From contig OZ242214.1 of NCBI GenBank assembly GCA_965206595.1, positions 3,744,001 through 3,808,000 of the forward strand: a stretch of DNA of 64,000 nt. Direction: 5' to 3'. The stretch comes from Candidatus Latescibacterota bacterium (GTDB lineage: Bacteria; Latescibacterota; UBA2968; UBA8231). Under the pieces are notes generated by a model. The model saw nothing but the letters and a program-made list of their open reading frames with translations, searched no databases and was not told the DNA's origin. Made by a program: the position numbers and the translations under genes. This document shows, piece after piece, positions 1 to 36,939 of the stretch; position 1 is the first letter of the stretch; every line of letters starts with the position of its first letter.

Positions 1-2737
1 AGAGAGGGACGACCGTGTGGGTGTGGTCCAACGCCCGCTTTCCCAGCTGCCGGGTCCGCTTCAACCAGAGTCCTTTCAGGGCCGGCTGCAGCGTCAGATT
101 CCCCCAGCGCCACGTGTAGTCGGCCTGCTGCACCCACGCGAGGGAACGGATCCGGTCCCTGACTTGCTCCGAACCGTCCCCTAGCCGACCCCCGTACTGC
201 CGGTTGTGTTCCAGTTTCATCCGGGTGACGATCCGCCAGCCGGGAAGCCACCTCAGGGTGCCCGATATGTACAACCGGTTCGCCAGGCTGTTGCGATAGT
301 GCAACGGATCGAAGGTGAACGTCGGAAAATACGCGAATCGCCCCTCATCGTTCCTGAGGAATCTCTGGTCTACGTTCGCGGCCGCCGCCGTCCAGCTGAA
401 CACGTCATTCGGAACATCGTCCCACACCCGCTTCAGCTCGTTCTCGATCAGCCATTCCCCCACCTCGGGACGCTCGCCGCTGTAGTGCAGCCGGAGGTAG
501 CCCTGGTCGTTGCGGCCTCCGCCGGCAATCTGATGAGATTTCAGCCAGCCCGCCGTCGCCTCTGCGCCTGTCCATGGCTTCCAGCGGACATAACCATGCC
601 CCCCCCGCAGATCCCGGTCATACGGAAAGTCTTCCTTGCGGTCGTCCTCGCGCTCGTCCACGACATCGTTGTTGTTGAAATCCAGACCGTACACGTATTC
701 ATCCGGATCCACCTGGTAGAGCAGGAAAGGCTCCAGATAATCCGGCAGCCCGTTCAGGTTGCGGTTGGTATCCGGGATACCGTCGTTGTCCGCATCCTGT
801 CCGGGGAACACGGCCAGATCACGGGGGGCCGCGCCGCGGACCTTGAGCTCCGGGTTGGCGTCCCCATCATCGTTGTCCTCGACAAGAGAGAAGAAGGTCG
901 TCCTGTTCCTCACGTAGGGCTGGCCTCCTCCAAGCCCCCCGACATCACCAGGCCGCTTCATCATTCGCTCGTTGAACCTGGGCCCGATGGAAAACAGCTC
1001 TGCCCCGAAACCGTAGCGCGCCCTCTCCCGCTCGAGTTGAACGTACGCGGCCCGATCCCGAGCGTCGTGGCGCTCGCCGTTGCCCTCGTAGAGGGGAGGG
1101 TCCGGGTCGGTGCTCCCCGGGATGGAAGGCAGCTCCTGCCCGGGCACCCCGTCCCGGTAGCGGCTGTATCTGATGCTCTCGGCAAACTCCCCACGCATCC
1201 GCAGACCTGCGAGGTCCAGGGCCATGTTCGCGCCCCACACCGATTGCCCGGTCTCATTGCCGATCGAAATCCGTATCCGCTCGACATTCGACAGATCCTG
1301 CACATTCCCCTCTGCACGACGCACCGTCTTGTAGAACGGCGCCTCGTAGCGATCATCATGCGGAGTGCCTTCCCTCGCATTCACCACACCGATGTCGGCG
1401 ACCTCGATCCGGTAGTCATTACCCAGGGACGCCTCCACCTCCACCGAGCGCACGTGGGTCAACCCCTCCAGATTGAAGTAGTACACCAGGGCTTCGGTCC
1501 CGTCCGCGCGCTGAACCTGCCTCGGGTCTTCCCAGCCTATGAACCTCACCAGCCGATCTACGTCGGCGGACTCGGCCACCTCATCATCATTATCCGGGTC
1601 GTCGTCCGCAAGATTCTCCGCGTGATCCTTCCGAAACAGGTAGTCGGCATACAGCGGTTTTTCCATCTCGAAATAGGGATTGTTCGGGTTGCTCCCTGCG
1701 GTGGGATCGTAGTAGAAGCTGGGCCGGAAAGTCCCCTGGAGCGTCGTCGTCCCGACCACCGTGAACCTGTTATCCAGGTCCCGACGTATCACGTCCGGCG
1801 CTAGGTCCGGGCGCGGTTGACCATTGACCACCAACTGCACCCCGTACACGACGGGACCACCTCGTCCATCGCTCGGCGAATCGTCCGAGATCCGCACCGC
1901 AATGAGGGCCGGGATCGGCTGCGTGGCGTGCAGATCTCCCTTCAAGGCGGTCATCGGCGTGCGTACATCGAAGAAGTGCAGGTTGGCAAAGGTGGCGCCC
2001 AACCGCAACGGCCCCGTCTCGCGATCATAGTGTCCGGCCAGGATAATCGCCGAATCGTCGCCACCTCCATGTAATCCTCTTCCGTCCGAATAGCCCAAAT
2101 ACTGATAGGAGGCTACCAGGCTCAGGGCATCGCCGAAGGGGGTCAGAATGTCTCCCCGGGCGCCCTGTAGCGACACTCGATTCAGCGTCAGCGGCGTGAA
2201 CCGCGTGATGATCCCATGGGTCCAGAACCCACGAGTACCAGCCTGGGAAAAGATCAGATTGCTCGCCCATCCCGAGTAAGTCTGCCCGCCCATGGACAAG
2301 ACCCCGTGAAAGTTGGCGAGATTGGATTGAATACGACTGCTTCCACTGCGGATGTCGCCCGTCCTGGATTGTTCCGCGTTCCAGGTGGCCACTTGCCGAC
2401 CGCTGATCAGGAAGTTGCCGAGCGGATCGTAGATGTTGGACCACGGCGGCACACCCGACAGCGATTCGTAGTTGCGATACCCCGTGAAGGCGTAGTTCCG
2501 ATACACCTCCCCCGGGTCCCCCAGGAACATCCGATCCGGCACGACCGAGGGCACTTTCGGCGTCTCCTTCCACCGACGCTCCACCGTCCACAGCTCCTCC
2601 TCCTGGGCCTCAACCCACCTCGCTTCCCCCCCTATGGCAACCGTCATCGCCACCAGATAGAGGGCGGCAGAAACACGCCTTCTTCGATAGCCGTACCGGC
2701 TCCCTGCCTCCTCCGTTCTTTTGCCTTTACGCACCAT
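1..2737 (-). CDS. Secreted/outer-membrane protein, paralog 4 of unnamed Asp-rich beta-barrel-like family (3' end runs off window)
   Basis: Missing from the ORF track because it has no stop in the window. Manual translation from ATG 2737: MVRKGKR...ALYLVAMTVAIGGEARWVEAQEEELW...YRNYAFTGYRNYES...YDPLGNFL...VEDNDDGDANPE...VFPGQDADNDGIPDTNRNLNGLPDYLEPFLLYQVDPDEYVYGLDFNNNDVVDEREDD..FPYDRD, matching motifs in the neighbouring paralogs. Confidence 0.85.
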   Translation of the reverse strand, partial: MVRKGKRTEEAGSRYGYRRRRVSAALYLVAMTVAIGGEARWVEAQEEELWTVERRWKETPKVPSVVPDRMFLGDPGEVYRNYAFTGYRNYESLSGVPPWSNIYDPLGNFLISGRQVATWNAEQSRTGDIRSGSSRIQSNLANFHGVLSMGGQTYSGWASNLIFSQAGTRGFWTHGIITRFTPLTLNRVSLQGARGDILTPFGDALSLVASYQYLGYSDGRGLHGGGDDSAIILAGHYDRETGPLRLGATFANLHFFDVRTPMTALKGDLHATQPIPALIAVRISDDSPSDGRGGPVVYGVQLVVNGQPRPDLAPDVIRRDLDNRFTVVGTTTLQGTFRPSFYYDPTAGSNPNNPYFEMEKPLYADYLFRKDHAENLADDDPDNDDEVAESADVDRLVRFIGWEDPRQVQRADGTEALVYYFNLEGLTHVRSVEVEASLGNDYRIEVADIGVVNAREGTPHDDRYEAPFYKTVRRAEGNVQDLSNVERIRISIGNETGQSVWGANMALDLAGLRMRGEFAESIRYSRYRDGVPGQELPSIPGSTDPDPPLYEGNGERHDARDRAAYVQLERERARYGFGAELFSIGPRFNERMMKRPGDVGGLGGGQPYVRNRTTFFSLVEDNDDGDANPELKVRGAAPRDLAVFPGQDADNDGIPDTNRNLNGLPDYLEPFLLYQVDPDEYVYGLDFNNNDVVDEREDDRKEDFPYDRDLRGGHGYVRWKPWTGAEATAGWLKSHQIAGGGRNDQGYLRLHYSGERPEVGEWLIENELKRVWDDVPNDVFSWTAAAANVDQRFLRNDEGRFAYFPTFTFDPLHYRNSLANRLYISGTLRWLPGWRIVTRMKLEHNRQYGGRLGDGSEQVRDRIRSLAWVQQADYTWRWGNLTLQPALKGLWLKRTRQLGKRALDHTHTVVPL

Positions 2738-2752
2738 GCAGTGTATCCCGGC

Positions 2753-5638
2753 CTATAGAGATCGCGACACCGCGGTCTTCCGCCCTTCCGAGGCCCTCAG
2801 CCCTACAACCATGCGGACGAAGAAGTGTGAGTAGTCTATGTCCTCGATCCCGCGACTGCGATCGTCCATCCGGCGCCGCTTGAGCTGATAGCCGGCGTTG
2901 AAGCTCATTTCGTATCCGCTGTACGACGAGGTGTTGGTCACCATCGCCAGATAGTCCTGCGATTCGTAGTCAGCCGAATCGTTCAAAATGTCCCGATAGC
3001 GACCCGGCGCCTGCACCCCGAGCTTCACCACCGTATTGGGACTCAGCCTGAAGTCCAGCCGCAGAATGGGATAGTAGTGCACCTCGTGAGCCGGCAGCAC
3101 CACCGCTTTCCGATCCGTCGTCCTCCGGGCCATGTACTTCAGCTGGGGCCGGACCGTCCAGTTCCCCCGGGTCCACACGTAATCCGCCGCGATCACCGAG
3201 GTCCAGTCCTGGATCCGGTTGGCCTTCTGGACCGACGTTTGCCGCTGGAAATTCAGATTCAGTTTCGCATTCGCGCGCACGCTGAATCCCGGAAACCACT
3301 TCAGGCGGCCCTCCACAAACGTCGTATTCACCACGCTGTTGCGCATGCGCAGGGGCCGGTCCTGATACCACGTGATACCGATGCCGATCAGATCATCGGG
3401 GTTCACCCCGCGAGTGCCCACCGGAGTGATCGGTCCCAACGGCCCGAAGGTGTCGTCATGGGAAAATCGATACAGTTCGTCGGGGATGGTGTCCTTGACC
3501 CTCTTCAGAAAGTTGACCGCCTGGATCCTGCCCAACGACGGCTCGTCCCTGGTGTACTCCGCCTTGCCATACCTCATCCAGTTGCGCCCCCCGCCCAGGA
3601 CCTGACGCAGGTCGAGCATGCCCAGCCTCAACTGCAGCCCGTTGTCCCAACGCCCCCCGCTGAACAGGTGAAAACCTTCCGAATCCCTGTCGTAGGGGTA
3701 GTCGGGCTTGTCGTCGTCCTCGCGGCGGTCGATCACCCCGTTGTTGTTCATGTCGTCCCCGTAAACGAAATCGTCGGGATCGACATAGTAGAGCAGAAAG
3801 GGCTCCAGATAGTCCGGCAGACTGTTGTTGTTCTGGTTGATGTCCGGACGGCCGTCCAGATCTCCATCCAGTCCGGGAAATACGCCGTCGCGGTCGGCGA
3901 ACGCCGGCAGGAAGTGGTTCTCCGGGAAGACATCGCGATCGTCGTTGTCGTCCACCAGATCCAATTCCATGGTGTTGTTGCGCGTCTCGTCGACCGTCCC
4001 GCCCAGATCGGTGAAAAAGGGCACGCCGCCGTAAAGCGCCAGACTCCCATCTTGAATGGAGAGCGTCGTCGTGTAGTGCGGGGAGATACTGAACAGCTCT
4101 CCTCCCAGAAAACCCGGCCCTACGTCCTTTTTCACGTTGACGTAATACGCTTCCGCCCGGCGCTGGTGGTAGCGCCCCCCCAGGTCGGAATACTGTCTGA
4201 AGTCCCAGTTCAGGTCATACTCGGCGCTCAACTGAAAACCCAGCACCGCCGTCGAAAGGGTTACCCCACCGACGGTGACCCCCGTCTGCCGACCGTAGTC
4301 GAACCCCACCCAACCCAGATTGCTCAGGTCCGTCACGCGCCCTTGGGATCCGGCAACCCGGTAGAAATACGTCGCCCGGTTTCGATCCTGAGGCCGGTTC
4401 GACTCCTTGCTCACGAGACCAGCCACAAACACCTCCGACACGCTGATCTCGTAGTCGTTGGCCACCAGCGCCTCGAAACGAACCTCCCGCGCCCCCGCCT
4501 CGGGCATGGCGAACCAATACAACAAATACTCCGTGCCGCTGGCCTCCAGCCCATCCGCCCCCGCCGTCTCCGTGGGCAGAAAAGGCTCCGGCGCTGCCGC
4601 GCTCTTGATGAACTCCACATACGGAGGAATCGTACGGCCGCGCGGGAAGAGCCGGTCGTTGTTGGCGTTGGCCCCCAGGTTGCTCTGCTCGAGCACCTCC
4701 GTATCGTGACGCGTGATCACAGGACGAAGGTCGTCCCTCGCTGCGCCGTTGATAAACAGGCGCACATCGAACACACGCGCCCCTTGCCCATCCCGCTCCG
4801 TCTCATCCGCTATCTTGACCACCAGGTATTCGATGAACGACGGCCGCCGCGCTACCCCGATCCCTCCCGGATCGTGAACCGGAAGGGTGCCCTTCAAGCT
4901 GTTCTGGGCCAGCCCAACCTGGGTGTCCACCCGAAACTGATTCAGATACGAAACCCCCACATCGAACATCCCTACACGGGTCTGGCCGTGGCCACCCAGC
5001 AGAAACGCCGCCAACAAGCTTCGGGACAGACCCCGAACCTCCTCCACCCTCTGATCGTAACCGACGTTGTCTTCGTACGAAAAGATGGCCTCCAGCTCGT
5101 AGATGGGCCGGTCCAGACGCGAGGTCACCAGGGTTAAGCCGTGGCGCCCGAAATCCCAATCCCAGCGAATCCCGTTCAAAGCTGCCATGTCCATCGCCAA
5201 TGAAGAAAAACGCGTGCGAATCCGATCCCCTATGATGAGCCGCTGGTTGGCGCCGACGTAGGTGTCCTTGGCCAGAACCAGTCGGGCCAGGAATTCGTGA
5301 TAAAGCAGACTCTTTTTGAGTCGGCTGCCCGGATCACGGGCTTCCGTCGTCGGATCGTCGAACACCGGATGAGACTCGGACAGCCGGTAGAGCTCCACCC
5401 CGTCCATGAGCAGGTTGCCGAAATCATCGAAAACCAGCGTCGTCGTGCGATCGAACTCCTGGCGCCCCGTCCTGCGATAGCCCTGTAGCCCGTAATTCTC
5501 ATACTCCGGCACCGGTCGGGACAGAAGAGAGCGGCGCGATACCAGCTGAGCCCCACCCTCACTCGGCCACAGGAGGACCACGCTCAGCACCAGAGACACA
5601 GGGTCTGGTCTTTTTCCTTTAAGCACGATACAGCGCAT
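2753..5638 (-). CDS. Secreted/outer-membrane protein, paralog 3 (961 aa)
   Basis: Long ORF, signal peptide ending EGGA-Q, DxDxDG-type Asp-rich block, amphipathic beta-strand C-terminal region (HFFVRMVVGL). Confidence 0.85.
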   Translation of the reverse strand: MRCIVLKGKRPDPVSLVLSVVLLWPSEGGAQLVSRRSLLSRPVPEYENYGLQGYRRTGRQEFDRTTTLVFDDFGNLLMDGVELYRLSESHPVFDDPTTEARDPGSRLKKSLLYHEFLARLVLAKDTYVGANQRLIIGDRIRTRFSSLAMDMAALNGIRWDWDFGRHGLTLVTSRLDRPIYELEAIFSYEDNVGYDQRVEEVRGLSRSLLAAFLLGGHGQTRVGMFDVGVSYLNQFRVDTQVGLAQNSLKGTLPVHDPGGIGVARRPSFIEYLVVKIADETERDGQGARVFDVRLFINGAARDDLRPVITRHDTEVLEQSNLGANANNDRLFPRGRTIPPYVEFIKSAAAPEPFLPTETAGADGLEASGTEYLLYWFAMPEAGAREVRFEALVANDYEISVSEVFVAGLVSKESNRPQDRNRATYFYRVAGSQGRVTDLSNLGWVGFDYGRQTGVTVGGVTLSTAVLGFQLSAEYDLNWDFRQYSDLGGRYHQRRAEAYYVNVKKDVGPGFLGGELFSISPHYTTTLSIQDGSLALYGGVPFFTDLGGTVDETRNNTMELDLVDDNDDRDVFPENHFLPAFADRDGVFPGLDGDLDGRPDINQNNNSLPDYLEPFLLYYVDPDDFVYGDDMNNNGVIDRREDDDKPDYPYDRDSEGFHLFSGGRWDNGLQLRLGMLDLRQVLGGGRNWMRYGKAEYTRDEPSLGRIQAVNFLKRVKDTIPDELYRFSHDDTFGPLGPITPVGTRGVNPDDLIGIGITWYQDRPLRMRNSVVNTTFVEGRLKWFPGFSVRANAKLNLNFQRQTSVQKANRIQDWTSVIAADYVWTRGNWTVRPQLKYMARRTTDRKAVVLPAHEVHYYPILRLDFRLSPNTVVKLGVQAPGRYRDILNDSADYESQDYLAMVTNTSSYSGYEMSFNAGYQLKRRRMDDRSRGIEDIDYSHFFVRMVVGLRASEGRKTAVSRSL

Positions 5639-8502
5639 CCTGAATCGTCATCACCTGGGTCACGTCCCTGCGTTCCGTGCAACCGCGGTCTTCCGCCCTT
5701 CCGAGGCCCTCAGCCCTACAACCATGCGGACGAAGAAGTGTGAGTAGTCTATGTCCTCGATCCCGCGACTGCGATCGTCCATCCGGCGCCGCTTGAGCTG
5801 ATAGCCGGCGTTGAAGCTCATTTCGTATCCGCTGTACGACGAGGTGTTGGTCACCATCGCCAGATAGTCCTGCGATTCGTAGTCAGCCGAATCGTTCAAA
5901 ATGTCCCGATAGCGACCCGGCGCCTGCACCCCGAGCTTCACCACCGTATTGGGACTCAGCCTGAAGTCCAGCCGCAGAATGGGATAGTAGTGCACCTCGT
6001 GAGCCGGCAGCACCACCGCTTTCCGATCCGTCGTCCTCCGGGCCATGTACTTCAGCTGGGGCCGGACCGTCCAGTTCCCCCGGGTCCACACGTAATCCGC
6101 CGCGATCACCGAGGTCCAGTCCTGGATCCGGTTGGCCTTCTGGACCGACGTTTGCCGCTGGAAATTCAGATTCAGTTTCGCATTCGCGCGCACGCTGAAT
6201 CCCGGAAACCACTTCAGGCGGCCCTCCACAAACGTCGTATTCACCACGCTGTTGCGCATGCGCAGGGGCCGGTCCTGATACCACGTGATACCGATGCCGA
6301 TCAGATCATCGGGGTTCACCCCGCGAGTGCCCACCGGAGTGATCGGTCCCAACGGCCCGAAGGTGTCGTCATGGGAAAATCGATACAGTTCGTCGGGGAT
6401 GGTGTCCTTGACCCTCTTCAGAAAGTTGACCGCCTGGATCCTGCCCAACGACGGCTCGTCCCTGGTGTACTCCGCCTTGCCATACCTCATCCAGTTGCGC
6501 CCCCCGCCCAGGACCTGACGCAGGTCGAGCATGCCCAGCCTCAACTGCAGCCCGTTGTCCCAACGCCCCCCGCTGAACAGGTGAAAACCTTCCGAATCCC
6601 TGTCGTAGGGGTAGTCGGGCTTGTCGTCGTCCTCGCGGCGGTCGATCACCCCGTTGTTGTTCATGTCGTCCCCGTAAACGAAATCGTCGGGATCGACATA
6701 GTAGAGCAGAAAGGGCTCCAGATAGTCCGGCAGACTGTTGTTGTTCTGGTTGATGTCCGGACGGCCGTCCAGATCTCCATCCAGTCCGGGAAATACGCCG
6801 TCGCGGTCGGCGAACGCCGGCAGGAAGTGGTTCTCCGGGAAGACATCGCGATCGTCGTTGTCGTCCACCAGATCCAATTCCATGGTGTTGTTGCGCGTCT
6901 CGTCGACCGTCCCGCCCAGATCGGTGAAAAAGGGCACGCCGCCGTAAAGCGCCAGACTCCCATCTTGAATGGAGAGCGTCGTCGTGTAGTGCGGGGAGAT
7001 ACTGAACAGCTCTCCTCCCAGAAAACCCGGCCCTACGTCCTTTTTCACGTTGACGTAATACGCTTCCGCCCGGCGCTGGTGGTAGCGCCCCCCCAGGTCG
7101 GAATACTGTCTGAAGTCCCAGTTCAGGTCATACTCGGCGCTCAACTGAAAACCCAGCACCGCCGTCGAAAGGGTTACCCCACCGACGGTGACCCCCGTCT
7201 GCCGACCGTAGTCGAACCCCACCCAACCCAGATTGCTCAGGTCCGTCACGCGCCCTTGGGATCCGGCAACCCGGTAGAAATACGTCGCCCGGTTTCGATC
7301 CTGAGGCCGGTTCGACTCCTTGCTCACGAGACCAGCCACAAACACCTCCGACACGCTGATCTCGTAGTCGTTGGCCACCAGCGCCTCGAAACGAACCTCC
7401 CGCGCCCCCGCCTCGGGCATGGCGAACCAATACAACAAATACTCCGTGCCGCTGGCCTCCAGCCCATCCGCCCCCGCCGTCTCCGTGGGCAGAAAAGGCT
7501 CCGGCGCTGCCGCGCTCTTGATGAACTCCACATACGGAGGAATCGTACGGCCGCGCGGGAAGAGCCGGTCGTTGTTGGCGTTGGCCCCCAGGTTGCTCTG
7601 CTCGAGCACCTCCGTATCGTGACGCGTGATCACAGGACGAAGGTCGTCCCTCGCTGCGCCGTTGATAAACAGGCGCACATCGAACACACGCGCCCCTTGC
7701 CCATCCCGCTCCGTCTCATCCGCTATCTTGACCACCAGGTATTCGATGAACGACGGCCGCCGCGCTACCCCGATCCCTCCCGGATCGTGAACCGGAAGGG
7801 TGCCCTTCAAGCTGTTCTGGGCCAGCCCAACCTGGGTGTCCACCCGAAACTGATTCAGATACGAAACCCCCACATCGAACATCCCTACACGGGTCTGGCC
7901 GTGGCCACCCAGCAGAAACGCCGCCAACAAGCTTCGGGACAGACCCCGAACCTCCTCCACCCTTGAATCGTAATGGACGTTGTCTTCGTACGAAAAGATG
8001 GCCTCCAGCTCGTAGATGGGCCGGTCCAGACGCGAGGTCACCAGGGTTAAGCCGTGGCGCCCGAAATCCCAATCCCAGCGAATCCCGTTCAAAGCTGCCA
8101 TGTCCATCGCCAATGAAGAAAAACGCGTGCGAATCCGATCCCCTATGATGAGCCGCTGGTTGGCGCCGACGTAGGTGTCCTTGGCCAGAACCAGTCGGGC
8201 CAGGAATTCGTGATAAAGCAGACTCTTTTTGAGTCGGCTGCCCGGATCACGGGCTTCCGTCGTCGGATCGTCGAACACCGGATGAGACTCGGACAGCCGG
8301 TAGAGCTCCACCCCGTCCATGAGCAGGTTGCCGAAATCATCGAAAACCAGCGTCGTCGTGCGATCGAACTCCTGGCGCCCCGTCCTGCGATAGCCCTGTA
8401 GCCCGTAATTCTCATACTCCGGCACCGGTCGGGACAGAAGAGAGCGGCGCGATACCAGCTGAGCCCCACCCTCACTCGGCCACAGGAGGACCACGCTCAG
8501 CA
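2769..8502. repeat. Tandem direct repeat 2769-5589 / 5682-8502 (2821 bp, offset 2913)
   Basis: Direct comparison. Shadow ORFs in other frames are also identical between copies. The only mismatches seen are 5051-5053/7964-7966 and 5061-5062/7974-7975. Confidence 0.95.
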
Positions 8503-8563
8503 ACCACACACTGAACAATAACCCCCTGCGTATAGACACATTCCTATGCGTCACTGCCCACAA
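5660..8563 (-). CDS. Secreted/outer-membrane protein, paralog 2 (967 aa), near-identical to 2753-5638
   Basis: Translation identical to paralog 3 except the signal peptide, the last few residues and GYDQ vs HYDS. Confidence 0.85.
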   Translation of the reverse strand: MWAVTHRNVSIRRGLLFSVWLLSVVLLWPSEGGAQLVSRRSLLSRPVPEYENYGLQGYRRTGRQEFDRTTTLVFDDFGNLLMDGVELYRLSESHPVFDDPTTEARDPGSRLKKSLLYHEFLARLVLAKDTYVGANQRLIIGDRIRTRFSSLAMDMAALNGIRWDWDFGRHGLTLVTSRLDRPIYELEAIFSYEDNVHYDSRVEEVRGLSRSLLAAFLLGGHGQTRVGMFDVGVSYLNQFRVDTQVGLAQNSLKGTLPVHDPGGIGVARRPSFIEYLVVKIADETERDGQGARVFDVRLFINGAARDDLRPVITRHDTEVLEQSNLGANANNDRLFPRGRTIPPYVEFIKSAAAPEPFLPTETAGADGLEASGTEYLLYWFAMPEAGAREVRFEALVANDYEISVSEVFVAGLVSKESNRPQDRNRATYFYRVAGSQGRVTDLSNLGWVGFDYGRQTGVTVGGVTLSTAVLGFQLSAEYDLNWDFRQYSDLGGRYHQRRAEAYYVNVKKDVGPGFLGGELFSISPHYTTTLSIQDGSLALYGGVPFFTDLGGTVDETRNNTMELDLVDDNDDRDVFPENHFLPAFADRDGVFPGLDGDLDGRPDINQNNNSLPDYLEPFLLYYVDPDDFVYGDDMNNNGVIDRREDDDKPDYPYDRDSEGFHLFSGGRWDNGLQLRLGMLDLRQVLGGGRNWMRYGKAEYTRDEPSLGRIQAVNFLKRVKDTIPDELYRFSHDDTFGPLGPITPVGTRGVNPDDLIGIGITWYQDRPLRMRNSVVNTTFVEGRLKWFPGFSVRANAKLNLNFQRQTSVQKANRIQDWTSVIAADYVWTRGNWTVRPQLKYMARRTTDRKAVVLPAHEVHYYPILRLDFRLSPNTVVKLGVQAPGRYRDILNDSADYESQDYLAMVTNTSSYSGYEMSFNAGYQLKRRRMDDRSRGIEDIDYSHFFVRMVVGLRASEGRKTAVARNAGT

Positions 8564-8606
8564 CTCCCATGGTGCCGTTTGCGCCCAGGCATAAACGGCA
8601 CAGCCA

Positions 8607-11339: not shown

Positions 11340-11629
11340 GGATGCTCCCTGGGTCAGAGGTCCACAAGAATGAATTGAGGAGCGAAATACCATACGGCCC
11401 TTGAGGAATTCGCGGTCACTCCTGACTCCCCGGTGAGGGCGCCTGGGGAGCGAACAGTCAACTGCAGGGGACGAATGCTGTCCGGGGCAAATGAGTTTCC
11501 ATGGCAAGAGGGTCGATGAGCCGGGATGGATCGGCGCTCGTGCAGAAACGGGAATTAAGCCAGGCAGCACTTGATCCATCCCTCGAGATTACGTGCAAAG
11601 CGCGGGCCGCCCCCACGGCCGGAAGAAGC

Positions 11630-13699
11630 TTAGTACACGAGGCCTACGGTGCCGACGCGTCGCTCATCCCCTTCATCCGCTTCCACCAGCAACTCATACA
11701 GATAAATCCCCGGAGGCACGACGTTTCCGTGGGAATCTGTTCCATCCCAGCGACCCGGCGGGGACTGCGAACCGCCGTCATACCGTCGCGCAGACAGTGG
11801 ACCGGCGTGCAACTCCCGGACAAGCGATCCGTCCAAAGAGAAAACCCGAACCGATACGGGGGCACCTTCCGCCTTGGCCAGCGTGAAAACGATGGTAGCC
11901 TGGTCGTTCCTGCCATCCCCGTTCGGCGTGAAAATGGCGGGCTGTGCCTGCGCGTCTATTAACACTTGACCCAACACTTGAGGGGCGGAAACCAACCATC
12001 CTCCCTCCTGCACATCTTCGACCACGTTCTGCGGATTTTCCGAATCCAGCGCGAGCAGCTGGGCGCTCCAGGAGTGAGCAATCGTGTAAATCGCGGCCCT
12101 CATATGAATCGACAACTGCACATCCTCGTTCAATGGAGGATCGAAAGGGATCTCCAACCCCCTGTCGGTCATTCCGGCGCCAACCACCTCACTGCCAGTG
12201 CCTTCCAGCCCGTCGACGGGTGAAACGGGGTCGAGCGTCACCGGTCCCGGAACCGCGATGATCAGCCGCTCAACACCACTGTTCTGCCCGGAAATCTCCA
12301 AATCAAGATCGTACGTGAAGGTCGTATCCCTCCCCATCTCCACACTCAGCGGCGAAATCCGCCCCGAGGCTGATCCGGCGGGCACGTCATCCACAGAGGA
12401 TTCCACCGTGATACTCCGAAACCGGGGGGTCACGCCCTCCACGCTCGTCGACAGTCGTACCCGGTATTGGAACTGGCCCGCGGGCTCGGGCGCCTCGACG
12501 AAGGTATTGCTGTCCTCGTACGCGTATTCCCTCGTCCACGCACTCCACTCGCCGTCTACCATCGTCCTGAATTGGAGAGCTATCGAGGTACCGACGGGCA
12601 CGTCCGCCTCCCAGGTGATCCTGCCGATGTTCTTCGCCCCCTGTTCGCCGAGATCCAGGGGCTCGGATTGGAACGTCCCGACGGCACTGTAGGCCTCACC
12701 ATACACCTCGATCTCGGCCACATCCGGCGAACTGACCCCGTCAATCTCGGCGACTACAATCCGTATGTATCGTGCCAGGGCGGGCTCGAAACGGACCGAG
12801 GTCTCCTCGTACTCGGTGATCCCGTGCAGAACCGCGACTTCCGACCAGCGAAACTGGTCTTCGCTCACCTGAACCGAATACCCCTTCAGGGAATTGATGA
12901 AATAGCTACCCGACCTGCCTGAGGGTGCCTTGGTTATCACCCGGACCCCGCTCACCCTGCGAACCTCCCGCAGGTCCATGCTCACATGCTTGTTCAGGGC
13001 ATTCGCACCGGGTGTCCACGAACTGGTCAGCACCCCATCGTTGGCTTCCAGGACGCTGGAGGGCTGCCCCAAAGCCAGATTCCGACCATCAATCGAGCTC
13101 AGCGCAATCCCCCCTTCCGCAGTTCCGATGTCCACGTCTCCAGGATAACCCGCCACAGGCACAACCGATGGATTCGTACGCCCCGCTATCTGCGTCGGAT
13201 CCAGGGTGCCGGACTGAACCAGCGGGGCCTTGCTCCAGTCCACCTCAGCCAGGTCCGGATCCTCGCTGGACCATCGCCATGCCCCCTCCCGTTCCTCCCG
13301 ATTCCCCAACTTCGTGCCCGTGTGCTGCACACCGGTCTCCAGCTCCACCAGCAGCCCGCTCCCGTTCCCATTCCCCTCACTGGTCACTCGCACTAGTATT
13401 TCATTGGTGCCCCGGTCGACCGATATCTGATAGGTCTCCATCGTCGTCCAGTCGTCGTCGGACCCGATAGTCGTACCATTGAGCCACAGCTCGTACCGAT
13501 CCACCGCGGTCAGCCGTATCGCCCCATCACCCGCTACATCGGCTTCGAACTCGCTATAGTACCATGCCGTATTGTCCCAGGAGGCCTCCCGGCACACCCC
13601 CGAATCGCACTCCATCTCCGACGCGACATGCGCCGGTACGGTGAGAAGGAAAACCGATAGACTCAGGTTCCTGAGCTGCTCGTGGCTGCGCTTCATCAT
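11630..13699 (-). CDS. Secreted protein with F5/8-type (discoidin-like) domain and C-terminal FlgD-Ig/CHU_C-like domain
   Basis: Signal peptide; NLALGQP...YSVQVSED..RW...ARYIRI...EIEVY discoidin pattern; C-terminal FTPNGDGRND...WDGTDSHGNVVPPGIYLY. Confidence 0.8.
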   Translation of the reverse strand: MMKRSHEQLRNLSLSVFLLTVPAHVASEMECDSGVCREASWDNTAWYYSEFEADVAGDGAIRLTAVDRYELWLNGTTIGSDDDWTTMETYQISVDRGTNEILVRVTSEGNGNGSGLLVELETGVQHTGTKLGNREEREGAWRWSSEDPDLAEVDWSKAPLVQSGTLDPTQIAGRTNPSVVPVAGYPGDVDIGTAEGGIALSSIDGRNLALGQPSSVLEANDGVLTSSWTPGANALNKHVSMDLREVRRVSGVRVITKAPSGRSGSYFINSLKGYSVQVSEDQFRWSEVAVLHGITEYEETSVRFEPALARYIRIVVAEIDGVSSPDVAEIEVYGEAYSAVGTFQSEPLDLGEQGAKNIGRITWEADVPVGTSIALQFRTMVDGEWSAWTREYAYEDSNTFVEAPEPAGQFQYRVRLSTSVEGVTPRFRSITVESSVDDVPAGSASGRISPLSVEMGRDTTFTYDLDLEISGQNSGVERLIIAVPGPVTLDPVSPVDGLEGTGSEVVGAGMTDRGLEIPFDPPLNEDVQLSIHMRAAIYTIAHSWSAQLLALDSENPQNVVEDVQEGGWLVSAPQVLGQVLIDAQAQPAIFTPNGDGRNDQATIVFTLAKAEGAPVSVRVFSLDGSLVRELHAGPLSARRYDGGSQSPPGRWDGTDSHGNVVPPGIYLYELLVEADEGDERRVGTVGLVY

Positions 13700-13736
13700 T
13701 CGGACCGCCTCGAAATCACCCAAAAAATCCCCTTGG

Positions 13737-13779
13737 AAAAAAGAGGAGGTGGAGGAAGGACATGGCCCTCCTCCACCTC
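13737..13779 (-). terminator. Rho-independent terminator after the 666-aa gene
   Basis: 11-bp inverted repeat GAGGTGGAGGA (13746-13756) / TCCTCCACCTC (13769-13779), followed on the minus strand by CTCTTTTTT. Confidence 0.75.
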
Positions 13780-13802
13780 GGTTACACGATCGGCGACTCT
13801 CT

Positions 13803-15803
13803 TTACTTGAGCAGGGTCATCTTCTTGGCCTGCTCGTGGTCCCCGACCTTCAAACGGTAGAAATAGATGCCGCCGCCAACGGCCTTTCCGCCGTCGTCGT
13901 TCCCGTTCCAACTGGTGCGATAGGACCCCGCCGACATGAACTGGTTAACCAGCGTGGACACTATCTGGCCCTGGCTGTTGAGTATCATCAACTTGGCATG
14001 GCCATCGGTGGGAATGGCGAACTCGATCGTCGTCTGCGCATTGAATGGGTTGGGGTACGCATCGCCCAGGTCAACCGCGTCCGGCGTTGCAGCGGACGTT
14101 TCCACGACCGCGGTCTCGACATCACCGATCAGAGCCTGCTCGATCCGGAAGGGCCAATGAGCGACCTGATAACCACCGAACTCGTCGTTCCAACCTGTCG
14201 CCCCTTCCTCCGCGGGCTTCTCGGCGGTCAGGATATAGAGTCCGTCCCAGTCAGACTGCTCGTGGATCATGTTCGTCCCCGAACCAGTCGCCTCGTGATT
14301 ACTGAGCGGAATATTGGGGCCCTGGGCGTGGAAGATCCCGGCGCCATCGGGGCCGTAGACCGCTCCGTAGGCCGGCTGGCGGGACATGTCTCCCTTCGAG
14401 CCCTCAGTCATGAAGACGAATCCCGGGATTGCCCCACCAGAGATGGAGACCGAATGGGACTCACCATCCGTCACAGGCTCAACACCCAGCGCCTGGGCTT
14501 CGCCAGCCCAGATGTTGTCATTGAAGCCGTCCCCAGTGTGGTTCTGGTAAATGAGGTCGCCGTCCCAGTCGACTTTGATCGGAACCCAAGGGATCGAACT
14601 TGGACCCCAACCGCCAGCGGACATGACGAACCCTTCATCGTCGATCGATATGCAGTTGATCATGCTCGCCGCGAGAGCCGTTTCGGTAACTTCCGGGTCG
14701 TGGCCGAATTGCTCCCACACCATGTAATCGGAGACGTCGATGATGTCGGTGACTTCGCCCGAGCTGGAATCCAGCTGGTAGATACCGGCGGACGGGGGAT
14801 CGTTGAACCACCCGTTGCCCATGTACAGGAAACCCTCGTAGTACTGCAGGGAGAAGAAGAAAGTGCCGTCATCGCCCTGGGCGATATTCTCCCCTGTTTG
14901 CCAGCTATTCGGTGGTTCCCCGAAGCCGGCCATGGGCTCGGAGGTCTGCGAATCCCAGTCTACGGTAACGCCGATGACGCCTACGCCGGCATAGCCGTAC
15001 ATCCAGTTCCTGGAGAAATCTTCAGGATCGATGGCCACGCCATGTGCCTGGCCACTCAGGATCTGTACCGGATCCCCGTCGTCGTTGGTCAAGCCGTAAT
15101 CCGGCAATTCGGTTGTGTATGCGGAGAGGATGTCGAAGGGATCGTCGGCATCCAGCCAGTTCCCCGGGGGGATCGGATACAGTGTGAAGCCGCCACCCAT
15201 ACCGCCGAGGAGGTGGCTTCTCGGCCCGCCCAGATCGTTATTGCAACATCCACCCAAACGGGCGGGGACCATGTGCATGTATCCCTGGCCCTGCATGACC
15301 TTCACCTCGGAGCTGCGCATCCGGAATCCGTAACCCGTGACGGCAACCCAGTTGGCGTCGGTGATGTTGTCGTAGCCCAGAACATAGAGGGTGTAGGTGC
15401 CAGGCTCGACGTCCTCTCCGGCCCAATCCGTGCCATCCCACAGGCAGGAATGCGATCCCACGTCAAACTGGCCGCACTCGACCACTTTCACCACGTTGGG
15501 GATCCCCTCCCTGCGAAGCAGCGCGTGGCCGCCATTCCATTCGGGTCTACCCGGGCCGCCGAAACCACCTGGAGTGGGCTGGTCCTTGGTGTAAATCGCC
15601 AGGTAGACCGTGGCTTGGGTACCCGACAGAGTAAAGGGAACCTCCGCGTTGCCGCTGAAATCGTAACTCACATTGCTCACTTCAATCCCGAGCATCGTGA
15701 GATCCTCGCTCCGCACGTACTCGTAGCCAGCGGTCCCCGCGTACGTCAGGGACGCACAGAGGGTGAGGATGACCACGGACATCAAAGTCAATTTGACTCT
15801 CAT
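13803..15803 (-). CDS. Acidic secreted protein with N-terminal FlgD-like and C-terminal T9SS-type-A/FlgD-Ig domains
   Basis: Signal peptide LTYA-G; WDGTDWAGEDVEPGTY near the N-terminus; AYPNPFNAQTTIEF...WNGNDDGGKAVGGGIYFYRL...KKMTLLK at the C-terminus. Confidence 0.85.
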   Translation of the reverse strand: MRVKLTLMSVVILTLCASLTYAGTAGYEYVRSEDLTMLGIEVSNVSYDFSGNAEVPFTLSGTQATVYLAIYTKDQPTPGGFGGPGRPEWNGGHALLRREGIPNVVKVVECGQFDVGSHSCLWDGTDWAGEDVEPGTYTLYVLGYDNITDANWVAVTGYGFRMRSSEVKVMQGQGYMHMVPARLGGCCNNDLGGPRSHLLGGMGGGFTLYPIPPGNWLDADDPFDILSAYTTELPDYGLTNDDGDPVQILSGQAHGVAIDPEDFSRNWMYGYAGVGVIGVTVDWDSQTSEPMAGFGEPPNSWQTGENIAQGDDGTFFFSLQYYEGFLYMGNGWFNDPPSAGIYQLDSSSGEVTDIIDVSDYMVWEQFGHDPEVTETALAASMINCISIDDEGFVMSAGGWGPSSIPWVPIKVDWDGDLIYQNHTGDGFNDNIWAGEAQALGVEPVTDGESHSVSISGGAIPGFVFMTEGSKGDMSRQPAYGAVYGPDGAGIFHAQGPNIPLSNHEATGSGTNMIHEQSDWDGLYILTAEKPAEEGATGWNDEFGGYQVAHWPFRIEQALIGDVETAVVETSAATPDAVDLGDAYPNPFNAQTTIEFAIPTDGHAKLMILNSQGQIVSTLVNQFMSAGSYRTSWNGNDDGGKAVGGGIYFYRLKVGDHEQAKKMTLLK

Positions 15804-15975
15804 CTCATGCTCCTTGGTTCTACCAGATGAATAGTAACGCCTCCACCGAACTGTGAATCCGGCAAAGACCGCTTGCTGCCTCCTCTACTGACTGAAGATT
15901 ACTTACCGGATCTCCTCCTTTCTGCTTCTTCCGGTAACCAATCGGTTTAAGTGACATCGTACTCGCCTGCTTGCC

Positions 15976-16533
15976 CTACGACGTTCCGGGCACTATCACA
16001 AAATCATAGCCTTTGACGGTGACATTCTTCACCTGCGAACTGACCGTCAAGCGATGGTACTCCTCGAAGGGATACCACTTCTTGACCCCGGTTTCGGGTA
16101 CCAGGACCGCCGGCTCCTCCTCTGGCGGCTCGACTCCGATAATCCTGAAGGCCTCTGTCTCGTCGAAAGGGTCCATCTTTTGGAAACCGTAGTTCACGTA
16201 AGCGCACAAACTGTCCTTGATGATCGCGAAAACCTTCACCCCCTTCAGATCGTTCCATTTGGCATTCCCGTACGGCTGATTCCCCAACTGCGGGCGATAG
16301 GCGTCAGGTTCCCCGAAGCGAGCGACCAGTTCCTCCACGCTGCTGCCGAGCACGAAGTGGACATCGAGGTAGGTCTCGCCTTCGGCATCCCTCGCCGCCT
16401 TGAAGGCTGCAATTTTCGCACCTTCGTCCTGTGCGACTTCCTCGCTCTCGGAACAAGAAACGAGTTGAATTCCGCAACAGCTTAATGCGAAAACACCTCG
16501 AATTAATGCGAAAACACCTTGAGTTCCAAGCAC
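15976..16533 (-). CDS. Hypothetical protein, probable lipoprotein
   Basis: 185-aa ORF co-oriented behind the exbD genes; hydrophobic N-terminus with LVSC lipobox-like motif; start uncertain. Confidence 0.6.
   Translation of the reverse strand: MLGTQGVFALIRGVFALSCCGIQLVSCSESEEVAQDEGAKIAAFKAARDAEGETYLDVHFVLGSSVEELVARFGEPDAYRPQLGNQPYGNAKWNDLKGVKVFAIIKDSLCAYVNYGFQKMDPFDETEAFRIIGVEPPEEEPAVLVPETGVKKWYPFEEYHRLTVSSQVKNVTVKGYDFVIVPGTS
16482..16519. repeat. Short tandem repeat TTAATGCGAAAACACCT x2 (period 21)
   Basis: 16482-16498 and 16503-16519; encodes GVFAL twice in the signal region. Confidence 0.85.
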
Positions 16534-16558
16534 TAATTTTCCCGAATACCCCTGCGGA

Positions 16559-16987
16559 TCAAGACGTTCCCAGCAGGGCCTCCGCTTTCTTTTCGGTAGC
16601 GAGCACGATCTTCTCGATCCCGATCCGCTTCGCCGTTTCCATCAGATCAAGGACCAGTCCGTGCCGGGTATCCTTGTCGGTGCGAATGATCAACGTCACC
16701 ACCCTCACCCCCTCCTTCTCCCGCGCCAGCACGCCCTCCAGGCTTTCCAGCGTCACGGGATGGCGGTTCACTTCCATCACTCCGGCGCGATCGATCGTGG
16801 CCACCAGCTTTTTTTCCTCGATCATCGCCGCCTCTTCCGCCTCTGGGAGCAACACCTTCAGACGGTAGGGCTCTTGGAACACCGTGGTCACCATGAAGAA
16901 AATCAGCAGCAGGAACACGCAATCGATCAACGGAGTCAACTCCATCTCCCCCGACTCGACACCGCCCTCCCGACGTTCCGGTCCCAT
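16559..16987 (-). CDS. exbD: Biopolymer transport protein ExbD/TolR
   Basis: ELTPLIDCVFLLLIFFMVTT TM motif with conserved Asp; IIRTDKDTRHG..LDLM periplasmic motif. Confidence 0.92.
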   Translation of the reverse strand: MGPERREGGVESGEMELTPLIDCVFLLLIFFMVTTVFQEPYRLKVLLPEAEEAAMIEEKKLVATIDRAGVMEVNRHPVTLESLEGVLAREKEGVRVVTLIIRTDKDTRHGLVLDLMETAKRIGIEKIVLATEKKAEALLGTS

Positions 16988-16989
16988 CT

Positions 16990-17403
16990 TCAGGATCCCT
17001 GCAACTTGGCGAAGGCGATCCCCTTCACACCCACCCCCCTCGCCGCATCCACAACCTCCACCACTCGAGATTGGGCGGCATCCCGGTCTCCCTGGATGAT
17101 CACGTTGTCGTTCCGATTCTCCACCATCGCTCGCTCTATCCGGGCCCGCAGCTGGCCAGGGAGTACTTCCTCACCGCCGATTTCGACGCGGCCGTCCCGT
17201 TCGACGATGATGTTGATATCCTTCTTTTCCTGCTGCTCAGTGGCTTGGGACGCCCTCGGCAAGTCGACATCCAGCCCCCGTGCATGTATGAAAACCGTGG
17301 TCACCATGAAGAAAATCAACAACAGAAAAACACAGTCGATCAGGGGGGTCAGATCCACCGTTTCTTCGGTGATGAAGCTCTGTTTCGCTCGGTGACGGGC
17401 CAT
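16990..17403 (-). CDS. exbD: Biopolymer transport protein ExbD/TolR
   Basis: VDLTPLIDCVFLLLIFFMVTT; VDLPRA; IIQGDRDA...VVEVVDAAR..GV. Confidence 0.92.
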   Translation of the reverse strand: MARHRAKQSFITEETVDLTPLIDCVFLLLIFFMVTTVFIHARGLDVDLPRASQATEQQEKKDINIIVERDGRVEIGGEEVLPGQLRARIERAMVENRNDNVIIQGDRDAAQSRVVEVVDAARGVGVKGIAFAKLQGS

Positions 17404-17640
17404 ACTCTCTTCGAGATCTCGACGATCTCACCCGTGTCGTGTCGACCTTGGGGGATGGTGGTTGTTTTTCGCATCCTCGCGGTGCCCGAGGTGGATCAGC
17501 AACGCGCCCGGAGCAAGGGGTCACTCCAATCGCCCGCTAATTCCACCATACGTACTGTACTCCATCCAATCTTGACATCCAAGGAAAAAAAACGGGGCAT
17601 CCATGGCGCCAAGCCGGCCGCAATGAGTACTATCGCCTCG

Positions 17641-34777: not shown

Positions 34778-34818
34778 GGATAAGTCAGCCTGATTTCACC
34801 CAGCCGAAGGAGAAACCC

Positions 34819-35934: not shown

Positions 35935-36062
35935 TCCGGCTCAGGCGCCTTGCGCATAGGGTGCCCTGCCGGCCGGGTTTTCCACCATTTCCGGGACAGC
36001 ATACCAGGATCCGGCTGCGCCGGAGGCTCTCAGGGCGGCGCCCGCCGGACAAACCTTCCGCC

Positions 36063-36908
36063 TCAGGCGGCGAAGTTCTTCTCGTCGAAATACAGGTTGT
36101 CGTCGATCGGTTTGCCGCGGGCGACCCATACGTCGCGGAACAGGGTGCGGCGCTTGGGCGGCATCGCGGCCACGACTTCAGGCGGCACGCTGCTCCGGCC
36201 CCACCGGCAGTTCACCGTGTTGTAGAGGCTGAACAGGCACAACCGGTCCCGTTCCCTGTTGGTCCAGGTCGACCCGGAATGGCAAATGCCCTCGGTGAAG
36301 ACGACGACAGATCCCGGGGGGCAGGTGTAGGTCTCCCACAGGGGGCTGTCCCGGCCGCTGACCTCGTCCGGCAGCTCAAAGGCCGCCTTGTGGCTTCCCG
36401 AGATGAACAGGGTGACCCCGTCTCCAGGGCCCACCTCGTTCAGCTCCCACACCACGCGCGTGAGGCCCGCGTGGATCTTCCCCGGCACCATCTGGTAGAG
36501 GTGGGAATCTCCACAGAGGTTGAAGTATCCGCTCCCTCCGTGGGCGCCGAACTTGTCGTCGCCGAAGGGCCTCCGTTCGGTGCGGGTGCGCTCGAAGCGG
36601 AAGCCGTAGCAGTCCTCGCTGGCCAGCCCCTGATGCGACACGATCTCGTTCAAGATCCCGGCGAGGACGGGATGATCGAGAAGGACCTGCGAGGGCCCGC
36701 CCACGGAATTCCGCTCCTCCGGCGGCAGGGATTCCGGTTCGTCCAACAGCTTGTGCTGATGTTCGAGAACCGCTCCCAACTCGTCATGGCTCAAAAGCCC
36801 GGGAAGGCAGATCCACCCCTTGACGTCGAAGGTGTATCTCTGTCCCTCGGTCATGGGAACGATCGGCAGACCGTCTCCATTCGTCGTCGGCAACAGCTGG
36901 CTGTCCAT
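36063..36908 (-). CDS. PhyH-family Fe(II)/2-oxoglutarate oxygenase (HxG variant)
   Basis: QRYTFDVKGW, LLDHP, AHGG, VVWELNEV, GSHKA, GSVVVFTE..CH. Confidence 0.8.
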   Translation of the reverse strand: MDSQLLPTTNGDGLPIVPMTEGQRYTFDVKGWICLPGLLSHDELGAVLEHQHKLLDEPESLPPEERNSVGGPSQVLLDHPVLAGILNEIVSHQGLASEDCYGFRFERTRTERRPFGDDKFGAHGGSGYFNLCGDSHLYQMVPGKIHAGLTRVVWELNEVGPGDGVTLFISGSHKAAFELPDEVSGRDSPLWETYTCPPGSVVVFTEGICHSGSTWTNRERDRLCLFSLYNTVNCRWGRSSVPPEVVAAMPPKRRTLFRDVWVARGKPIDDNLYFDEKNFAA

Positions 36909-36939
36909 TCTCTTCCTTTCTCACATGTGAAGGCGGGGA

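Follow-up and report, generated by a model that had tools for sequence, protein, structure and literature searches.

A conserved gene cluster of predicted giant outer-membrane barrels, surface proteins and Tol/Ton-like genes in Latescibacterota and related bacteria

The first 17,403 positions of a 64,000-nucleotide stretch of DNA from a Candidatus Latescibacterota bacterium (GenBank assembly GCA_965206595.1, contig OZ242214.1, positions 3,744,001 to 3,808,000; this whole stretch is referred to as the window) hold a row of nine genes on the minus strand (Table 1). The row opens with two genes of the ExbD/TolR family, continues with genes for a small lipoprotein (L), a protein with a FlgD-type tail (F) and a discoidin protein (D), and ends with four large open reading frames (ORFs; barA, barB, barC and barD) that code for giant proteins predicted to be outer-membrane β-barrels. 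An initial annotation, made from the sequence alone, had counted nine co-oriented genes and had proposed that they form a candidate new envelope system. All nine were found as minus-strand ORFs, and the proposal holds up. This region is the first part of a conserved envelope cluster of approximately 25–30 kb, present in Latescibacterota and relatives in the Fibrobacterota–Chlorobiota–Bacteroidota (FCB) superphylum. The unit is bigger than the window shows, and as a whole it looks undescribed.

We found 72 homologs of the barrel proteins, all of them unnamed or annotated as "hypothetical", and 426 representative clusters that match the family at E ≤ 1e-3. Because of these homologs and clusters, we can exclude that the barrel genes are chance ORFs. 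The family consensus, built from 143 and 79 sequences, contains the motifs YxNY, YDxxGNxL, IRTxFTPLTL, VANDY and SNxxxVxFxYG together with an acidic segment rich in D and N, which confirms the shared motifs first noticed in the four large ORFs. A short hydrophobic stretch directly after the predicted signal cleavage site is also conserved in the barrels. NCBIfam returned nothing for the four paralogs at E ≤ 0.01, and no Pfam model exceeded its gathering cut-off, so that the description of an unnamed family remains correct for both databases. Neighbors of the barrels in the Atlas are unnamed clusters from Latescibacterota and Gemmatimonadota. The nearest named Atlas cluster, DUF6029 (0.89), was dropped because it found no Pfam support. 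Longer fused forms of the barrels were not found either, which is weak evidence.

To describe the fold we rely on an AlphaFold 2 (AF2) model of the barB protein, built from the 79-sequence alignment. This model (predicted local distance difference test (pLDDT) 82.3, predicted template modeling score 0.84) consists mostly of long β-strands, with about 26 strands of at least eight residues as counted solely from the secondary-structure string. The strands are broken by a β-rich insert (residues ~243–445). The acidic segment (residues ~565–655) is confidently modeled and holds the most conserved D/N-rich motifs of the family. Only about 90 residues, with no long helix, precede the first long strand. 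A Foldseek search of solved structures with this model listed, at E ≤ 1e-3, matches that are membrane β-barrels by description. The top three are all SlpA from Deinococcus (8agd, 7zgx, 8ae1; E = 3e-9 to 1.4e-8, probability 1.00), followed by MtrB, LptD, ushers, TonB-dependent transporters (TBDTs), porins and SprA, with the TBDTs among the weak matches (E = 4e-4 to 6e-4). The TM-scores with SlpA are only 0.16–0.19, and these low values support the fold class but not a close family.

The sequences point in the same direction. Among Pfam models, SlpA_C (PF21620) alone gives a signal: scores of 15.4–17.7 bits, against a cut-off of 35, were obtained for three of the four paralogs (17.7 bits for barB, no match for barA), and weak matches occur in 9 of 52 family members (best E = 7.9e-7). 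Neither Plug (PF07715) nor TonB_dep_Rec (PF00593) matched the four paralogs or the 52 family members at E ≤ 0.01, and in the barrels neither the Pfam scan nor the model revealed an SLH domain, a coiled coil or a peptidoglycan-binding domain of OmpA type. A sequence search of solved structures with a single barrel protein gave a best E of 1; the corresponding profile search gave a best E of 0.039, for an unrelated methylase segment that shares a VANDY-like word. Two calls of the initial annotation are thereby upheld. The prediction of outer-membrane barrels agrees with the strand-rich barB model and with its top matches, all of which are outer-membrane barrels, and the reported lack of a TonB plug or SusC/SusD signature agrees with Plug, TonB_dep_Rec and SusD scans that were empty at E ≤ 0.01. 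The paralogs are thus predicted, with barB as the modeled example, to be outer-membrane barrels of some 26–30 strands each and remote relatives of the SlpA barrel. True membership in the SlpA family was rejected on account of the missing SLH domain and coiled coil and the scores under the cut-off. SlpA itself is described in PMC9388160 as a homotrimer of 30-stranded barrels with an SLH domain and a coiled-coil stalk, and with metal-binding insertions in the barrel lumen. The acidic insert of the barrels described here is probably metal-binding as well.

To see the row in its wider context we surveyed one genome per species with a 19-sequence alignment as the query. This search gave 595 confirmed matches, from which 64 loci were kept; about 20 kb was fetched for each, and gene presence was scored by tblastn. 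Most of these loci are labeled as Latescibacterota, and the others as Gemmatimonadota, Handelsmanbacteria, Zixibacteria, KSB1, Zhuqueibacterota and Nitrospinota. The usual gene order is (L)-F-D-B-B-B, where B stands for a giant barrel, with three plus-strand barrels in 39 loci, one in 17, two in 7 and four in 1. D lies upstream of a barrel on the same strand in 60 of the 64 loci; in the four exceptions (L014, L035, L042 and L054) no more than 152 bases separate the barrel from the start of the locus, which is a contig edge. F-like matches were obtained in 46 loci, about 35 of them spanning most of the protein, and homologs of L in 22, always before F or D. This survey substantiates the suggested linkage between the barrels and surface proteins with tails. 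D and barrel genes occur in varying ratios (1:3, 2:2, 2:3, 1:1).

Seven of the 64 loci contain a small barrel of the PorV/PorP family between D and the giant barrel (PorV_fam, 67–90 bits; cut-off 90); no PorP/PorV-like gene lies between D and barA in the window. In the deep-branching loci (L052, L056, L057, L060, L011, L025 and L037), D is followed in turn by a PorV/PorP barrel, a giant barrel, a gene for a tetratricopeptide repeat (TPR) protein, TolQ-like and TolR-like genes and a gene for a DUF4159 protein. Core genes for type IX secretion (T9SS; SprA/Sov, PorKLMN/GldKLMN, PorU) were not seen within the 64-kb window or the ~20-kb loci. Several cassettes can occur in one genome (L019, L041 and L047 on one chromosome; L015, L049 and L055 on another), so that genomes carry two or three diverged cassettes, as is expected for substrate-specific systems. 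Some loci depart from the usual order. Six of them (L006–L009, L023 and L046) read L-D-B-B-D-B-F, so that another D precedes the third barrel; the TPR, DUF4159 and tail-lipoprotein genes stand ahead of this row. In three others (L012, L022 and L036), D is doubled in tandem and a TolQ/TolR/TolR unit lies upstream in divergent orientation. At L056:2669-9564 and L057:6316-9791, the PorV-like gene and the giant barrel are separated by inserted genes of defense or toxin–antitoxin type (Fic, HEPN, nucleotidyltransferase, HicA, AbiEi-like and DUF5131).

With the sequences from these loci we could examine how the four barrels of the window relate to each other. They had been described as four paralogs. 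The shared motifs bear this out, but the four ORFs represent only three old classes (B1, B2 and B3), with B2 present twice. The barA and barD proteins are 34% and 31% identical to that of barB; barB and barC are 99.8% identical. Between positions 2769-5589 and 5682-8502, 5 of 2821 bases are different; the repeat unit is 2913 bp long, and divergence between the two copies is confined to the first ~20 codons and the final few. A sister locus, L001, which is 92% identical to the window (91.5–92.4% at the DNA level), contains a single B2 gene that aligns to both window copies. The extra copy in the window therefore reflects a recent duplication, gene conversion or an assembly artefact. The barA frame probably starts near 11315, giving a protein of ~902 aa, because homologs of 880–917 aa fully cover its residues 90–990.

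A tree of 154 barrel rows from the window and the 64 loci was computed with FastTree, with no bootstrap and with long-branch warnings. On this tree, barrels largely group by whether they stand first, second or third in their locus. The tree requires 13 changes of position label, compared with a mean of 73.4 after shuffling, and 0 of 200 shuffles gave so low a value. barA, barB/barC and barD group with positions 1, 2 and 3, respectively: barA falls into a set of 47 rows of which 46 are first-position barrels (support 99), and the row nearest to barD is the third barrel of L001 (94% identity). Judged by this tree, B1, B2 and B3 are three old classes that stand in fixed order in this lineage.

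Three proteins are encoded between the ExbD pair and the barrels. L has a lipobox-like signal ending in Cys, as read in the translation, and gave no Pfam or NCBIfam match and nothing in a sequence search of solved structures. F matches FlgD_ig (53.9 bits) and the T9SS tail model TIGR04183 (32.1 bits; cut-off 23); Pfam Por_Secre_tail (PF18962) reaches 24.4 bits, below its cut-off of 27. This protein is predicted to be secreted and consists of an N-terminal FlgD-like Ig domain, a middle domain without known fold and a C-terminal tail like those of T9SS type A. The search of solved structures found nothing for F, and its look-alikes in the Atlas, with scores of 0.85–0.90, are tail-bearing proteins, some with NHL propellers, which we treat as a lead only. 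In L052, the F position is taken by a protein that resembles GHL10 glycosyl hydrolases and bears the same tail. D matches F5_F8_type_C (40.3 bits), CHU_C (PF13585; 25.6 bits, just under the cut-off of 27) and TIGR04131 (16 bits against a cut-off of 35). The initial annotation had named these three as a 185-aa lipoprotein, a FlgD/T9SS-tail protein and a discoidin protein with a CHU_C tail. The first two names fit the data; of the third, the discoidin part is secure, but the CHU_C tail falls slightly short of its threshold.

The AF2 model of D (pLDDT 88) is all β and shows a string of β-sandwich domains without a catalytic domain, in the order jelly-roll, discoidin, Ig-like domains and a C-terminal domain similar to CHU_C/FlgD_ig. 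Its Foldseek matches are galactose oxidase and neuropilin (in each case the discoidin domain), the N-domain of GH78 rhamnosidase and macroglobulin-like domains. D carries an ordinary signal peptide and no lipobox. From this model, D is predicted to be a secreted, non-catalytic protein of glycan-binding type. No SusD Pfam match was obtained for L, F or D (E ≤ 0.01). A complex prediction for mature barA and the C-terminal domain of D (residues 588–697) returned no answer (score 0.00 twice, controls not run) and counts neither for nor against contact between the two.

More of the cluster becomes visible beyond the window edge. Flanking ORFs were scanned with Pfam and NCBIfam and then traced by tblastn across the 64 loci. 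In L001, B3 is followed by a gene for a weak TolB-like propeller, a giant TPR protein, a DUF5683 protein, a 148-aa gene and a DUF4159 protein. Since L001 continues in this way past B3, the window almost certainly stops mid-cluster. At least one of the TPR giant, the DUF4159 protein and a lipoprotein with a TonB_C-like tail is present in 57 of the 64 loci, and the remaining seven are short contigs. The tail lipoprotein was not found in the fetched part of L001; the tails from L002 and L051 provide the NF033768 scores in Table 1. It also matches the tails of GltG and GltJ, and 10 of 29 such proteins give weak Pfam TonB_C matches. On the tails from L002 and L051, the GltG equivalog model reaches 35 bits (cut-off 650) and the GltJ equivalog model 22 bits (cut-off 450). 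In the DUF4159 protein (L001:21685-22878 plus 46 further loci) a single N-terminal membrane helix precedes a Lys/Pro-rich linker, and in roughly half of these 47 sequences the helix contains SxxxH. We take this layout to resemble the N-termini of TonB and TolA, which hints that the DUF4159 protein is the head of an energy transducer. For DUF4159, our literature search found only the Pfam database paper. As far as gene content tells, the recurrent energy-coupling partners of the barrels would be the TPR giant, the DUF4159 protein and the lipoprotein with the GltG-type tail, all of which lie outside the window.

The ExbD genes at the head of the row are clear members of their Pfam family (100.1 bits for exbD1 and 99.1 bits for exbD2; cut-off 25.4). 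The best NCBIfam match of both is TolR (exbD1: TIGR02801, 68.6 bits, under the cut-off of 127.3; exbD2: 55.5 bits, also under the cut-off), and all NCBIfam equivalog models stay below their cut-offs for either gene. No ExbB/TolQ gene was found in the window region, where MotA_ExbB is absent from the five minus-strand ORFs scanned at 17521-22245, and domain scans found no TonB in the window. ExbB-like genes, with TolQ as their best-scoring model, are present in 14 of the 64 loci; 16 contain ExbB or ExbD. The initial annotation had linked an ExbD pair to the barrels and had pointed to the established role of ExbBD in energizing TonB-dependent transport. The pair is real and heads the row in both the window and L001, but ExbD lies within ~10 kb of the cassette in just 11 of the 64 loci and is therefore not a constant neighbor. 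In the window, no ExbB accompanies the pair. The two ExbD/TolR genes of the window belong to the Tol/Ton-like module of the cluster.

Whether the nine genes form one operon is uncertain because strong terminator-like hairpins separate L from F and F from D. These were identified by consensus scan only. We rejected the single-operon reading on their account; the nine genes may be divided over two or three transcripts.

Table 1. Genes and features of the cluster in the window, partner genes beyond its edge (with the number of loci in which they occur) and two further genes of the window.
Feature	Position in window	Strand	Size	Loci	Description
exbD1	16990-17403	minus	137 aa		ExbD/TolR family; first in row
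exbD2	16559-16987	minus	142 aa		ExbD/TolR family
L	15976-16533	minus	185 aa		small lipoprotein, lipobox-like signal
Hairpin between L and F	15839-15869	minus			14-pair stem (5 G-C), T-rich tail
F	13803-15803	minus	666 aa		FlgD-type tail
Hairpin between F and D	13746-13779	minus			14-pair stem (9 G-C), then T run; strong
D	11630-13723	minus	697 aa		discoidin + tail
barA	8607-11579	minus	990-aa ORF		class B1, predicted giant barrel
barB	5660-8563	minus	967 aa		class B2, predicted giant barrel; protein modeled
barC	2753-5638	minus	961 aa		near-identical second B2 copy
barD	2-2737	minus	912 aa present		class B3, predicted giant barrel; C-terminus cut by window edge
TPR giant			1,040-1,130 aa	46/64	3-7 YbgF/CpoB modules; TIGR02795 at 180-306 bits
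DUF5683 protein				21/64	Pfam
Small FN3-like lipoprotein				20/64	weak fn3 matches
DUF4159 protein			~410 aa	49/64	Pfam
Lipoprotein with TonB_C-like tail				45/64	NF033768 (AgmX/PglI C-terminal domain), 62 and 56 bits (cut-off 40)
Y_phosphatase3 genes (two)	49207-49983 and 63335-64000				

Upstream of the ExbD pair, a very long ORF (17071-22443, plus strand; start probably near 17626) diverges from it and codes for a protein with M28 peptidase and FtsX-like permease domains; the same M28 gene is also found upstream in L001. Further into the window, catabolic-looking genes lie at 30953-43900 and 61212-63338. This set includes a 1274-aa GH106-like protein, two proteins of the enolase superfamily, a PhyH dioxygenase and a BNR-repeat protein. 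The segment 44001-46000 has a G+C content of 0.50, compared with ~0.63 elsewhere, and holds short ORFs only; the five that were scanned are without a Pfam match, and the segment may be foreign or non-coding DNA. Neither Rfam families nor tRNAs were found within the window.

Gene content, conservation, predicted folds and synteny are the observations that any account of this cluster has to accommodate. From them we infer its localization, oligomeric state, energy coupling, transport direction and substrate. We favor a surface complex, coupled to the proton-motive force, for the capture and uptake of glycans, and assign to this reading as a whole a probability of roughly 0.45. Its general part, a conserved and energy-coupled outer-membrane surface complex, is rather probable; glycan uptake as the specific function is a tentative assignment. 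B1, B2 and B3 would probably act jointly, perhaps as one hetero-oligomer comparable to the trimer of SlpA, and the barrels would provide an outer-membrane platform and pore. D and F would sit on the cell surface and bind polysaccharide. A Tol/Ton-like module, comprising TolQ/TolR, the DUF4159 transducer, the CpoB-repeat scaffold and the lipoprotein with the GltG-type tail, would pass proton-motive energy from the inner membrane via the TPR scaffold to the outer-membrane complex, where it would drive the uptake of large glycans. Past the window, to go by the sister locus, the cluster would continue with the ~1,100-aa TPR protein, the DUF5683 protein, the small FN3-like lipoprotein and the DUF4159 protein.

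We favor glycan uptake because the modules of D are of carbohydrate-binding type, because the F position in L052 is occupied by a GHL10-like hydrolase with the same tail, because genomes carry two or three diverged cassettes, and because these bacteria are described as polymer degraders (PMC4454575). A bolder form of this reading is less probable but has a fair chance. It would make the cluster an undescribed class of machine in the FCB superphylum, coupled to the proton-motive force, with hetero-oligomeric B1-B2-B3 barrels and no plugged 22-strand transporter, a glycan-binding tail protein and a Tol/Agl-like drive with a DUF4159-ended transducer, which would move large polymers (for example intact glycans) by a route unlike those of SusCD, T9SS, Tol-Pal and Agl-Glt.

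Several points weigh against glycan uptake by an energized complex. The barrels contain no Plug and no recognizable TonB box, and therefore no known route for gating of the Ton type, and their inserts may block the lumen, as those of SlpA do. ExbD is nearby in so few loci, and ExbB is missing from the window; the motor genes are often sited elsewhere in the genome. Core genes of a T9SS were not seen in the window or in the fetched loci. L, F and D are split by terminator-like hairpins, the catabolic neighbors are not conserved across loci, and the barrel classes come from a FastTree tree only, with its long-branch warnings. Adhesion, gliding or protein secretion could be served by these parts too: the GltG-type tail, the PorV-like barrels and the tail-bearing surface proteins would suit the first two. 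The entire case rests on prediction.

Adhesion or gliding would assign the same parts differently: the barrels would anchor mobile or force-bearing adhesins, D and F, and a motor of TolQ/TolR type would act on them via the TonB_C-like protein and TPR scaffolds, as in Agl-Glt of Myxococcus or SprB-SprF of Bacteroidota. The tail lipoprotein indeed passes the cut-off for the AgmX/PglI C-terminal domain and matches GltG/GltJ tails, and two TolR-like genes stand in tandem, an arrangement like that of AglQ/AglS. PorV/PorP-like barrels adjoin D in 7 of the 64 loci; PorP-like barrels are bound by proteins with type-B tails, and SprB is an adhesin (PMC9143113). We nevertheless consider this function unlikely, given that the GltG and GltJ equivalog models remain so far from their cut-offs, that no other Glt or Gld components were recognized in the scanned loci, that several cassettes occur per genome, and that D is short and built of carbohydrate-binding-type modules, unlike a long repetitive adhesin. 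An export or anchoring apparatus has about the same low probability. Here the giant barrel would be the translocon or surface anchor of its tail-bearing neighbors, with D threaded domain by domain as in an usher or held like the type-B cargo of PorP. The proximity of D to the barrel in 60 of 64 loci, the T9SS-type tails on D and F and the PorV-family barrels in deep-branching loci would suit such a role, and the ushers, SprA, LptD and MtrB among the structural matches each hold a protein partner in or on the barrel. What speaks against it is the variable ratio of D to barrels, the frequent absence of F and the lack of any T9SS core gene in the fetched loci; contact between D and the barrel remains conjecture.

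The likeness to SlpA raises the question as to whether the barrels transport anything at all. They could be abundant envelope organizers, with the Tol-Pal-like genes (TolQ/R, CpoB-like TPR, TolB-like propeller) maintaining outer-membrane integrity. No solved structure matches better than SlpA, and SlpA_C is the one Pfam model that matches; the SlpA authors doubt a pore role because of the lumen insertions and favor that of a scaffold (PMC9388160). YbgF/CpoB modules make up the TPR giant, and TolQ and TolR are the best-scoring models for the ExbB-like genes and for the ExbD genes of the window, respectively. However, the barrels have neither SLH domain nor coiled coil nor OmpA-like peptidoglycan-binding domain; several diverged cassettes per genome would be unusual for a housekeeping scaffold, and the constant pairing with a carbohydrate-binding-type protein is left unexplained. 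A purely structural role therefore strikes us as quite improbable. Least credible is the scheme of the initial annotation taken literally, in which the ExbD pair directly energizes a SusCD-analogous transporter that feeds the catabolic genes of the window. The pair does head the row in the window and in L001, and GH106-like, enolase-superfamily and BNR genes are present. Yet plug, TonB-dependent receptor barrel and SusD are all missing, the window is without ExbB or TonB, and ExbD adjoins the cassette in only 11 of the 64 loci. The catabolic link is unsupported as well: the genes flanking the cassette vary from locus to locus, those of the window are not conserved beside it elsewhere, and the divergent M28-FtsX gene and a UPF0182 gene intervene between cassette and catabolic genes.

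Should the glycan-uptake complex prove real, the cluster would be a missing piece of polymer handling at the cell surface in Latescibacterota and their relatives, widespread bacteria that break down complex organic matter and are mostly uncultured. Names and partners would be gained for the barrel family, DUF4159 and DUF5683, and giant barrels of SlpA type would extend beyond the deep-branching phyla where they are known. The literature that we searched, with subscription journals and preprint supplements outside its scope, contained no description of the cluster, and no paper was found there on Latescibacter and type IX secretion or T9SS. In the portion of PMC4454575 seen by us, the outer membrane of Latescibacterota is credited only with non-specific porins and TonB-dependent receptors for iron and B12.

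Comparison with known systems shows how these parts are combined. Like SlpA of Deinococcus and Thermus, their best structural match, the predicted barrels are very large single-chain outer-membrane proteins, and acidic, probably metal-binding insertions interrupt the barrel sequence in both (for SlpA according to PMC9388160). They differ in having no SLH domain or coiled-coil stalk, in scoring only 15–18 bits against the PF21620 cut-off of 35 with TM-scores of ~0.18, and in forming three diverged paralogs side by side instead of one homotrimer-forming gene. Moreover, the barrels here are always paired with the discoidin/tail protein and usually with Tol/Ton-like genes. With SusC/SusD and the TBDTs the cluster shares a barrel gene beside surface glycan-binding proteins, several cassettes per genome and, in a minority of loci, linked genes of ExbB/ExbD type. 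It lacks the Plug, the 22-strand TonB_dep_Rec barrel (the model has ~26 or more strands) and the SusD fold, and its partner D is all β and not a lipoprotein. Since plug, receptor barrel and SusD were all not found, we rejected a strict SusCD/TBDT reading, and the SusCD analogy of the initial annotation is unsupported in its strict sense.

The resemblance to T9SS type-B cargo and its PorP/SprF anchors lies in the CHU_C-like tail of D and in the PorV/PorP barrel directly after D in 7 of 64 loci; cargo and anchor genes stand side by side in Flavobacterium (PMC9143113). The giant barrels are, however, about three times the size of the 14-strand, FadL-type PorP/PorV, the tail of D is under both curated cut-offs, the window has no PorP/PorV-like gene, and no core genes were seen. 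LptD-LptE, MtrB-MtrA and the ushers have similar strand numbers and also appear high on the list of structural matches. For Mtr and the ushers, too, the partner gene adjoins the barrel gene. These proteins bear no sequence relationship to the barrels, and D and L are without haem-binding, LptE or pilin features. Tol-Pal and Agl-Glt come closest on the side of the motor, with a TolQ-like gene, two TolR-like genes, a TPR protein of CpoB/YbgF type, an AgmX/GltG-type TonB_C-like tail, and outer-membrane barrels and lipoproteins within one cluster. The differences are that Pal and TolA were not recognized, that TolB is represented by a weak propeller match only, that the GltG/GltJ equivalog scores are far under their cut-offs and that the tail protein is here a lipoprotein. 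In addition, the membrane-anchored transducer carries a DUF4159 domain. The cluster is therefore not a recognizable T9SS, Tol-Pal or Agl-Glt system, though it contains parts typical of each, and it offers a natural case for the rewiring of Tol/Ton/Agl-type motors to new outer-membrane partners.

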